Below are positions 2,832 through 19,012 of a stretch of DNA of 64,000 nucleotides, one piece after another. The translations under genes were made by a program, and so were the position numbers. The notes beneath the pieces were generated by a model. The model was given only the letters and a program-made list of their open reading frames with translations, was not told the DNA's origin and made no database searches. The DNA comes from a virus. Taxonomy: Duplodnaviria; Caudoviricetes. How positions within the stretch are numbered: the first letter of the stretch is position 1; the number at the start of each line of letters is the position of its first letter. The DNA lies in the IMG/VR virus record IMGVR_UViG_3300031418_000003. One strand, 5' to 3'.

Positions 2832-3290
2832 TTAACCTGCGATAACAGGTGCGGCAAAGCGATGCAGTTCAGACAGCATGCGCTCTACACGTTTGTGGAT
2901 ACGTTGCTCTTGTACTGACTCGACGGTAAAGTCGACGACATGATGTTCAACCACATAACTTGATTGTGGATCAGTAAGCCACAATCCCATACGTAGGCTA
3001 TACATATCGTCACCGATCGGAATCAGCGTCAGGCGAACCACAATCGGTTTGTTGATCTGAAGCAGATCCAGTGTCTGACTGATCTTGAGTTCTTTATGCA
3101 GTGAACTCAGTTTGATCTTGCCGTCTTCCAGACCTTCCAGACCCAATGCCGAGCTTTCACCGATCAGGGTACGCAGTTGGTTACTCACTGCATTACGCAC
3201 GGTGCCAAAAGGGGCCGCTACAAGTTCAGCCACATCGGTGGTATTCAGTTCAGGTAACAGAAGGGTAAGACGTTGTTGCAAGTTAAGCAT
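2832..3290 (-). CDS. Hypothetical protein
   Basis: ORF with GAGG RBS, tightly packed. Confidence 0.75.
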   Translation of the reverse strand: MLNLQQRLTLLLPELNTTDVAELVAAPFGTVRNAVSNQLRTLIGESSALGLEGLEDGKIKLSSLHKELKISQTLDLLQINKPIVVRLTLIPIGDDMYSLRMGLWLTDPQSSYVVEHHVVDFTVESVQEQRIHKRVERMLSELHRFAAPVIAG

Positions 3291-3298
3291 GACTACCT

Positions 3299-3745
3299 CT
3301 ATACAGGTTGGTTACGATAATAGGACATGTGGTTATAAGAAACCCTTTTTGGTAAAGTATCGTAATTGCATTCATCGAACGATACCATACCAAACTGCGT
3401 GATACCCATAAATGCCAGGGTAGAATTACGGATGTTACATCTCGGCTTCAATGACAGGAGATGTAGATTTCCATTTTCAATCTGGGGGTCATACAAATGG
3501 CAAGAACTTAACGCCACCTTTCCCTTCAGTAAAAATCCCTTTTGTTCAAGTATAGTGTTATACCCAAACAAACGCAAATCGAGTTCACCGGAATTAACTG
3601 CGGTTTCCAGGTCATTCCAAGCTTCATAGGCCGGGCTGATCTCCGGCTTACCAAAAGGTTTGAATGAGATATGCAGAGACCCACCGTTCTCTGAATCGTG
3701 AACTACCAATACGCCTTTCTCAATAGCAAATTGCAGTCTCTGCAT
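3299..3745 (-). CDS. Hypothetical protein, paralogue of 2261..2755
   Basis: ORF with GAGG RBS. Confidence 0.75.
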   Translation of the reverse strand: MQRLQFAIEKGVLVVHDSENGGSLHISFKPFGKPEISPAYEAWNDLETAVNSGELDLRLFGYNTILEQKGFLLKGKVALSSCHLYDPQIENGNLHLLSLKPRCNIRNSTLAFMGITQFGMVSFDECNYDTLPKRVSYNHMSYYRNQPV

Positions 3746-4089: not shown

Positions 4090-4410
4090 TCATGAATGAA
4101 CACCGACCTTACGTTTGTAGTCAGCAATGAATCGGGGATTGGTATTGATAGAATACGACGCCCCACGTTTATCAACAATCACCCGATTAACGGAGACATC
4201 ATTGATCTTGACTTCCAGGATGATCTTGGAACGATCGCGATTGAAACCCCAGATTTTGGTTCCCACCAGAACATCTGCTTTTGGTGTTTTGGTGGCAGTG
4301 CTTTCGCCTAAAACGATCAGGTCTTTGTTGGCTAATTCAGTAATGGCGTTCTCGATCAAATGAGTGATCGACTCATTGGTGACGCTTGAGTGCAGGTAAG
4401 CTTTTTGCAT
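4090..4410 (-). CDS. Hypothetical protein
   Basis: Start MQKAY overlaps the upstream stop (TAATG coupling). Confidence 0.7.
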   Translation of the reverse strand: MQKAYLHSSVTNESITHLIENAITELANKDLIVLGESTATKTPKADVLVGTKIWGFNRDRSKIILEVKINDVSVNRVIVDKRGASYSINTNPRFIADYKRKVGVHS

Positions 4411-7922: not shown

Positions 7923-8363
7923 CTACAATAATGATCGGAAAGGAACGTTCCAGATCGGAACACGTTGAAGTCCCAACTTCTTATATTGGATAGCATAACA
8001 CTCTATCTCTTTAAACTTCATGGGACCTTTTGGTTTACTGGCATCAAGAGGAACACCACCCAGGTAAGGTTTAATGGTAACACTACCGTAGTTGTATTTG
8101 ATTCTAAACATCGCACTTTTGAGTATCCCGTTTTCATCGAGATACCGCAGACGCGTAAAGTTGGTTTTCTTGAGATACCGAAGTTCTTGGATATCCCCGA
8201 TAAGAAACTTTCTCAAATACTTGGTGAACTTCTTTTGTTGCCGCTGACGGTGAGCAATCTTGACATCCCACCACTTTCTTTTAAACCAGTTAGGATTAAT
8301 GATGCGAGTTCCTCCAACTTCATAGAGGAACTCATCGATGTTACTGCTGTTGATCTCTTTCAT
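7923..8363 (-). CDS. Hypothetical basic protein
   Basis: Start at MKEINSS chosen within ORF 7923..8396. Confidence 0.68.
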   Translation of the reverse strand: MKEINSSNIDEFLYEVGGTRIINPNWFKRKWWDVKIAHRQRQQKKFTKYLRKFLIGDIQELRYLKKTNFTRLRYLDENGILKSAMFRIKYNYGSVTIKPYLGGVPLDASKPKGPMKFKEIECYAIQYKKLGLQRVPIWNVPFRSLL

Positions 8364-16811: not shown

Positions 16812-17043
16812 TAATGCAGAGTTTATACTCTGTAAAAGAATTCCAGCCGGAGAGTGTAGCACCTTAGCTGAGTGCATCCGGTATCTCTCCCGACTCTACA
16901 TGTTCCAGTCAACGGGAAAAGATCCAGATCGACAGGACCACAATTAGGTTGATCAATCAATAGATAAGTTTTATGTCGAAATGAGAACAGTCCTTTCACA
17001 GCTTCTGAAAGTACACCAACTGTATCTAATCGAGATTAAATAG

Positions 17044-17931: not shown

Positions 17932-17956
17932 ACCTGGGTCTCGTGCCCAGGTTTTT
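17932..17956 (+). terminator. Terminator
   Basis: ACCTGGG-tctcgtg-CCCAGGT then TTTT. Confidence 0.7.
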
Positions 17957-18000
17957 CTACCTTCTCTTCTTAAAGTTTTATTACGATAGAATTTTAAGAA

Positions 18001-18366
18001 GGGCGGTACCGATTCCGTCTCGGTGGTCGAGGGCTAGGCGTGCGAAGGGAGTAGGGATGCGACATCCCTATGATATGTCTTGGTTGTAATAGCTTCCAAG
18101 TAACTCTAGATGAGACAAATGACCCCGGCAGCCAGCCGGTTAAACATTGTGCGGAATCACAATGAGGGGCAAAGACTCTTGCATAAAGATTTATTAATAT
18201 AAGTCTTTGAGCGAGCGTTTCGGGTTGGGTGCGCCAAAGGAGCCATCGTAGGCCAGGTCTGAGGGATAGTGACATAGTCACGTGATGTCAGAAGCGGGTT
18301 GCCGTGAGGTAATCAAACCGAGTACAGTTGGACTTTGTCTGACCTGGGAGTTAGTGACTCCCACCA
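18001..18366 (+). ncRNA. Unclassified GC-rich structured RNA of about 365 nt ending in a hairpin plus ACCA
   Basis: Multiple helices; GC-rich relative to flanks; 3' GGGAG-ttagtga-CTCCC-ACCA. Confidence 0.55.
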
Positions 18367-18367
18367 A

Positions 18368-18404
18368 GCTTCCATAGTTCAGTCGGTAGAACGAGGTATC
18401 TGAT
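18368..18404 (+). pseudogene. 5' half of a tRNA (remnant) fused to the HNH start
   Basis: GCTTCCA-TA-GTTC-AGTCGGTA-GAAC-G = acceptor strand, U8A9, perfect D-arm; no T-arm or 3' acceptor strand found. Confidence 0.6.
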
Positions 18405-18876
18405 GGATTTAAATGATTTAATGGTTCTTAAGGATAAGATAACCCGTGATCCAGAAACTAACTGTTGGAACTGGAATAAAAGCACCAGGGAAGGCTATGG
18501 TCAGATAACGATAGATGGGGTGCATTGGACCACACATCGGTATGTTGCCACAATCATCTTTGGCGTTATTCCAGAAGGCCATGTAGTGAGACATTCTTGC
18601 GATAACAGATTGTGCTGTAATCCAGGTCATTTAAGACTGGGAACACATAAAGATAACTGGAAAGATTCTGAGTCAGTTCACAGGGAATCTCATGTTAAGA
18701 TGAGAAGGGCATTAGGTTGGACAGTTGGAGATACGATTTATCCGACATCCAGAACAGCTCAGAAAGAAACAGGACTTCCTATGAAAACTCTAATGAGACA
18801 TATGAAGAACGGGATCTTCGATTTGGAAGCGTATCGCTCCGGATGTAAAAAGCGGGGAGTAATCCCTAAAGTTTAG
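18403..18876 (+). CDS. HNH homing endonuclease
   Basis: CWNW...GYG...HR...VVRHSCDNRLCCNPGHL...THKDN motif; GAGGT RBS. Confidence 0.9.
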   Translation: MDLNDLMVLKDKITRDPETNCWNWNKSTREGYGQITIDGVHWTTHRYVATIIFGVIPEGHVVRHSCDNRLCCNPGHLRLGTHKDNWKDSESVHRESHVKMRRALGWTVGDTIYPTSRTAQKETGLPMKTLMRHMKNGIFDLEAYRSGCKKRGVIPKV

Positions 18877-18912
18877 CTTTTAGCAAGACTTGAACTTGCT
18901 AAAAGAGTCAAA

Positions 18913-19012
18913 TTACACGCCATGCGGTTGTGCCGGGGTGCAACAGGCCAGGGGCGCTTAGGCGACCATACCTGGGATCCACTTCCCATCTGTCGGTAGG
19001 TGTGGTGTGTAA
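18913..19012 (+). ncRNA. Unclassified ~100-nt multibranch RNA
   Basis: 11-bp closing stem TTACACGCCAT/GTGGTGTGTAA enclosing 3-4 short hairpins; followed by a terminator. Confidence 0.5.

Follow-up and report, generated by a model that had tools for sequence, protein, structure and literature searches.

The question raised by this locus is whether the stretch from 18001 to 18366 holds one unusual RNA or more than one. The window analyzed in this study, that is, the whole 64,000-nucleotide stretch of viral DNA, comes from a phiKZ-related jumbo phage, and the proteins encoded beside 18001-18366 match phage families. The interval sits in a tRNA island, 3' of a predicted intrinsic terminator-like hairpin with a T-run (17932-17958, found by pattern match) at the end of an upstream gene of 171 aa; this hairpin and the window features described below, as far as the HNH gene, lie on the + strand. 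The closest named relatives of the region are Erwinia phage AH04, OBP, N1M2 and SXP01, and the sequencing runs that contain it are for the most part plant and phyllosphere metagenomes. The initial annotation had described a single, unclassified RNA of ~365 nt, GC-rich and structured, that might be a diverged tmRNA or a new class. Its description of the letters was borne out: the interval has 51% GC compared with 43% in the window, its folding beats that of shuffled sequences (z -3.43, 0/100), and it has neither a long sense frame nor a tag-like frame. The single unit did not survive comparison with relatives.

Two accessory RNA genes in one interval

BLAST searches matched one set of phages up to ~18172 and a different set from ~18175. 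The 5' part alone was found in OBP, SXP01, SA002 and two N4-like Pseudomonas phages, the 3' part alone in N1M2, Sureiya and Yubaba, and neither part in Kc263; whole-genome searches with a model of the 5' RNA upheld this split. Because relatives carry either half without the other, the interval is best read, on the comparison of sequences, as two separate accessory non-coding RNA genes, here called RNA A and RNA B. The RNA A model did not match RNA B even with filters off, which rules out RNA B as a distant RNA A. Two unrelated RNAs, together with the hairpin between them, add up to the tmRNA-like length.

ARAGORN and Rfam gave no match anywhere in the window, and Rfam gave none at 18001-18366 even at an E-value of 10, so the proposed checks for tmRNA, RNase P and introns came back negative. 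Compact homologues searched with both tools, at gathering and E-value thresholds, returned nothing relevant. The conserved motifs of RNA A and RNA B turned up in no paper in a text search of the literature, though an unnamed entry is possible in a catalogue of 10,006 candidate viral RNAs (PMC10690425). The suggestion of a new class thus stands twice over, as two apparently uncatalogued and undescribed families, with RNA A of a tRNA-mimic kind and RNA B unclassified. Confidence is very high in the two units, the fold of RNA A, its first elbow pair and its distribution taken together; expression, processing, the second elbow and a decoy role, taken together, are proposed tentatively and stand somewhat short of an even chance.

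RNA A: fold and distribution

RNA A (18001-18170) is predicted from an alignment of 29 sequences (MAFFT; identity 51-100%, mean 70%) to contain two pseudoknots and two tRNA-elbow modules in permuted order. In this alignment 96.3% of cells were paired, and 35 of the 48 pairs showed compensatory change, a level reached by none of 500 shuffles and far from that of slid controls. An unbiased mutual information analysis found the hairpins and both pseudoknots. The covariation check that the initial annotation had proposed therefore supports the helices and pseudoknots of RNA A. All nine helices listed in that annotation are present as complementary text, but three are unsupported by relatives: one (18008/18020) clashes with a covarying T-arm hairpin, one (18017/18112) is not retained, and one (18253/18341) is broken in N1M2 and absent from lambdoid copies of RNA B.

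Module 1 (18002-18043), supported by covariation and a tree test, consists of a T-arm hairpin (18002-18019) whose family loop consensus is TTCGATT, a short closed stem (18020-18030) whose loop forms pseudoknot 1, and a mini D-arm (18033-18043). A tertiary pair, C18010-G18040, joins base 3 of the loop in the first hairpin to a G of the next small loop. It occurs as CG in 19 sequences, AU in 3, GC in 2 and UA in 2, and its ~6 joint changes on the tree exceed the 99th percentile for background pairs of columns. Since the consensus of the first loop is that of a tRNA T-loop, this pair is taken as the equivalent of C56-G19 in tRNA. Module 2 (18051-18116), in which the helices covary, has a T-arm hairpin (18051-18071), a closed 8-bp helix (18079-18100) and a D-arm-like hairpin (18104-18114). 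C18060-G18109 is probably a second elbow pair, being Watson-Crick in 23 of 27 sequences against a shuffle mean of 18.3; it is weaker than the first because there are just two A-U compensations and the register was set by hand. The covarying 3' domain (18121-18170) begins with the second strand of pseudoknot 1 (18025-18028 with 18121-18124, compensatory change in 4 of 4 pairs) and continues with two hairpins (18125-18139 and 18146-18163) separated by an A-rich linker. Pseudoknot 2 pairs a loop (18131-18133) with 18168-18170 and shows compensatory change in 3 of 4 pairs. At 18130, all four sequencing runs have G where the window has A, and G is the family consensus of that loop.

The order in both modules is T-arm, closed helix, D-arm, which would make each a circular permutation of tRNA with no anticodon arm and no free acceptor end. 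Positions 6-22 of the RNA A model align to true tRNA T-arms. The T-loops of the window copy are degenerate and were therefore missed by both the initial annotation and ARAGORN: the statement that there is no T-loop is correct for the letters of this copy but not for the family, in which two hairpins are T-arms. Likewise, the tRNA likeness sensed at first is real, but it belongs to another part, the permuted T-arm/D-loop modules of the 5' RNA. RNA A has no acceptor end, no anticodon and no tag frame; a cloverleaf with an anticodon arm and a free acceptor end was not found, and no Levitt pair was identified.

Counting that of the window, 30 distinct copies of RNA A emerged when viral and metagenome contigs were scanned for its pattern, and the 29 other sequences all occur without RNA B. 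A hold-out profile, from which the window and the four relatives closest to it were excluded, had its sole match at 17999-18171 (E 8.5e-34). The carriers are several clades of jumbo phages, N4-like phages, small phages with Erf and exonuclease genes, and AT-rich contigs of uncertain nature. RNA A is present in OBP and missing from the whole genomes of N1M2, AH04, Kc263 and Moabite, a patchy spread that seems to resemble that of counter-defence genes. In GTDB genomes the exact pattern gave chance matches only, and RNA A was absent from 151 sampled bacterial genomes in a search that had no positive control.

Copies in jumbo phages adjoin tRNA genes, and many copies are located far from them. What follows RNA A varies among tRNAs, other RNAs, assorted genes and a gene on the opposite strand, and neighboring genes differ among phages, with no partner protein or target singled out. 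Sigma-70-like promoters were seen by eye directly 5' of RNA A in several other phages. RNA A was also found on two very long metagenome contigs (L076, 1.54 Mb and 29% GC; L062, 678 kb) that may come from a giant phage or a chromosome, where it lies behind sigma-70-like promoters and among small unknown genes. On three contigs (L011 ~4250-4410, - strand; L006 ~3178-3360, + strand; L020 ~8130-8290, - strand) it is directly followed by a fused double-tRNA-like RNA, in which a single acceptor stem encloses two sets of D, anticodon and T arms with a closed helix between them; these were missed by ARAGORN. N4-like phages have a long closing stem 5' of RNA A (L007 ~2855-2995, and the same place in L008 and L068), the interior of which is swapped among close relatives.

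RNA B and the flanking elements

RNA B (about 18210-18362) is known from 12 copies in three lineages. It comprises a 48-nt 5' core, a variable hairpin, a GNRA hairpin (18297-18314), a 7-mer (18315-18321) and a 3' hairpin (18345-18363). Its carriers without RNA A are jumbo phages (three), lambdoid prophages (seven) and one other temperate-type phage. In the lambdoid prophages (seven contigs found with a 16-mer scan) it lies between an antiterminator gene with an isrJ-type transcript and the lysis genes, with its own terminator directly 3'; in the third lineage, a 52-kb temperate-type phage, it lies upstream of lysis genes. The core is identical at 46-47 of 48 positions between jumbo and lambdoid copies and at 40 of 48 in the third lineage, and in the variable, GNRA and 3' hairpins the sequence shifts while pairing is retained. 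The conserved 7-mer may pair with a core loop (18218-18226) as a pseudoknot; we infer this from complementarity, since both strands are invariant and covariation cannot probe them. An 18-nt insertion specific to jumbo phages sits at the bulge of this proposed helix. RNA B alone folds no better than shuffled sequences (z -0.5), and the argument that it is real comes from conservation across three lineages, not from folding energy. It was not found in 401 sampled bacterial genomes, searched with no positive control, and was absent from E. coli genomes and plasmids. RNA B appears to be a pseudoknot-type RNA unrelated to RNA A. Its invariant core probably engages a single conserved partner, and a pseudoknot that binds protein or RNA is the favored guess.

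A long hairpin precedes each RNA and overlaps its first bases. P0a (17964-18003, arms 17966-81/17986-18001) is AU-rich, lies directly 5' of RNA A and overlaps its first G's at the base; a hairpin in this place with z of about -3 or lower was found in 10 of 27 RNA A homologues. P0b (18178-18215) overlaps the first bases of RNA B, and a hairpin of differing sequence occupies the same place in all RNA B lineages. P0a and P0b have a word in common that occurs at no other place in the window. These hairpins were considered as phiKZ-type early promoters. That reading was set aside: the P0a of strain X12 carries two compensatory changes and has lost the TATTAC word in its loop (one contig, depth 3.6), and a literature search turned up no paper on such a consensus. 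Because X12 keeps the pairing and loses the promoter-like word, a leader or processing stem is favored for P0a over a pure promoter, though a promoter may possibly lie there too.

At the other end of the interval, a single A separates ACCA (18363-18366) from the first base of a tRNA-Asn (18368). The terminal ACCA singled out by the initial annotation is therefore present, but it is a spacer before this tRNA; it closes no acceptor stem and is missing from the temperate-phage copies of RNA B. By analogy with the T4 rnaD gene, which also runs into ACCA, the CCA in jumbo copies may be a trimming mark. Only a 5' fragment of the tRNA-Asn (18368-18393, acceptor strand and D-arm) is left in the window. 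In the near-identical strains X9, X11 and X12, RNA A and RNA B are followed by an intact tRNA-Asn that continues from 18393; in the window strain its 3' part was replaced by a segment (18394-18908) with an HNH endonuclease gene (18403-18876, PHROG HNH, E 3e-28). This gene is missing in X9/X11, Sureiya and Yubaba, all of which still have RNA B, so it is not tied to RNA A or RNA B, and RNA B as a guide RNA of the HNH protein is ruled out. N1M2 (L001 3050-3626) likewise has an HNH gene after a tRNA-Asn cut 3' of the D-arm, with a different full tRNA-Asn 3' of the HNH gene, whereas the window has none.

Further along, 18913-19012 is a separate conserved RNA of ~100 nt. It is shared with AH04, N1M2, pEt-SU, Survivor and Moabite, shows compensatory changes and has no Rfam match. 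RNA B is not a copy of it: the blocks that the two share are lost in temperate-phage RNA B, and the RNA B profile misses the element. More ORF-free conserved cassettes occur in the islands of OBP-like phages (window ~16830-16945; L001 ~2400-2570 and ~2725-2850), the second of which was seen in N1M2, Sureiya, Yubaba, OBP, Kc263 and Survivor and not in the window.

Possible roles and relation to known systems

Since RNA A cannot be charged or decode, the simplest role for it is that of a decoy or ligand, and since it has no fixed downstream gene, a cis-leader role is disfavored. The reading preferred in this study, with a probability of roughly 0.45, is that RNA A is a stable, trans-acting mimic of the tRNA elbow that serves as a decoy or ligand of host tRNA-recognizing proteins. 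RNA A would be cut from the transcript of the island, which belongs to an OBP/AH04-like jumbo phage, or be transcribed from a promoter of its own, giving a compact RNA of ~170 nt with two permuted T-loop/D-loop elbows locked by two pseudoknots. It would then act in trans by offering tRNA elbows to host proteins that grip the tRNA corner, the likeliest targets being tRNA-cutting defense nucleases or enzymes of tRNA processing or decay. Two studies (PMC11555353, PMC10264068) describe phage tRNA islands as a counter to tRNA-cutting defenses.

Several observations speak against a decoy, namely the varying neighbors, the many copies distant from tRNA genes and the degenerate T-loops of the window copy. 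Additionally, most known defense tRNases cut anticodon or variable loops, and RNA A has neither. A simple decoy also fails to explain why RNA A has invariant bases at its junctions and a pseudoknot domain at its 3' end. A bolder version is considered doubtful: RNA A would be the first phage RNA counter-defense to work as a two-headed tRNA-elbow mimic, titrating tRNA-targeting immune or quality-control enzymes and spread among jumbo, N4-like and small phages, and RNA B would be a second new class, a ribozyme or protein-sequestering RNA common to lytic jumbo phages and lambdoid prophages.

The findings matter in that two uncatalogued RNA families were missed by annotation tools, and they bear on the old question of what non-tRNA RNAs do in phage tRNA clusters as well as on how phages protect translation against tRNA-cutting defenses. 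Carriers include cultured phages of Pseudomonas, Klebsiella, Salmonella, Serratia and Shewanella, which makes the proposals testable at once, and the covariation-backed model of RNA A with its tertiary contacts predicts specific base swaps.

Other readings have to be weighed against the elbow mimic. One is that RNA A, RNA B or both are catalytic, as self-cleaving or tRNA-processing ribozymes that mature the island transcript. The double pseudoknot and invariant unpaired bases of RNA A, the near-invariant core of RNA B and the adjoining tRNAs would suit such a role, but no Rfam ribozyme model matched at an E-value of 10, compact homologues included, and close relatives have the same tRNAs without either RNA, which makes it distinctly unlikely. 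Models of known self-cleaving ribozymes, RNase P and group I and II introns gave no match, and resemblances judged by eye to group II intron domain V, hammerhead, twister, pistol and the c-di-AMP and c-di-GMP riboswitches were dropped, as no model supported them. It is improbable that the two RNAs act in cis as leaders, whether riboswitch-like or as processing signals, for the features downstream of them. RNA A ends 17-23 nt 5' of a start codon at four loci, and the long P0 stem can pair with its first bases as a possible switch, but the downstream features are unrelated among loci, three of the four genes come with a Shine-Dalgarno-like site of their own, lambdoid RNA B has its own terminator, and sequestration of the 5' strand of RNA A by P0 could not be separated from shuffles.

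A single diverged tmRNA is extremely improbable. Combined length, which is a coincidence, a terminal 5-bp/7-nt hairpin followed by ACCA, tRNA mimicry and pseudoknots all recall tmRNA, but the two RNAs are separable and ARAGORN was negative. As the initial annotation had noted, there is no acceptor stem: the candidate stem with CCA starts with three G-C pairs, then has mismatches, and position 3 is G-C instead of the G3-U70 of tmRNA. No frame has an alanine-rich tag end. Searches of five whole phage genomes with RF00023 gave no match at these RNAs, whereas the model passed its cut-off in 9 of the 14 genomes used as controls. GOLLD and ROOL, phage RNAs of unknown function that often lie near tRNA islands and contain several pseudoknots (10.1101/2024.12.08.627333), are the model for a reading of RNA A as a small, self-assembling RNA-only structure or a ribosome-binding RNA. 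Two further conserved loops of RNA A are free for contacts. This reading is rather unlikely, given that RNA A is less than a quarter of the 800+ nt of GOLLD (10.1101/2024.12.08.627333), ROOL too is far larger, Rfam gave no match to either, and covariation cannot tell intramolecular from intermolecular pseudoknots. The rnaC and rnaD genes of T4 (species 1 and 2 RNA) are also small non-tRNA RNAs within a phage tRNA cluster, and rnaC has a T-arm; they differ in that neither the RNA A model nor the RNA B profile matches them.

The closest comparison is with YrlA (RF02553), whose arms run V, T, AS (a closed acceptor-like stem) and D (Chen et al. 2014, PMC4201824). RNA A has the same order, with P0 in the V position and T stem-loops 5' of a closed acceptor-like stem and D stem-loop, and both RNAs occur in phages and have a T-loop/D-loop tertiary contact; in RNA A the G19-C56 equivalent covaries in module 1 and more weakly in module 2. 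This likeness suggests that RNA A could be the RNA half of a Y-RNA-like particle, its protein, of phage or host, being either a ring like Ro60 that has diverged too far for Pfam or a different one. That is unlikely, as the Ro60-binding motif GNCGAAN0-1G, expected near the 5' end, occurs in 1 of 30 copies and at the 3' end, TROVE (PF05731) is absent from five carrier genomes with positive controls, no stem links the two ends of RNA A, and no neighboring gene is conserved. The RF02553 model did not match at RNA A and gave three sub-threshold matches elsewhere. RNA A has two modules compared with one in YrlA, an extra 3' pseudoknot domain, reduced D-arms and a first closed stem of just 2-3 bp that serves a pseudoknot. 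Judged by sequence and predicted fold, RNA A falls outside YrlA itself and resembles its tRNA module.
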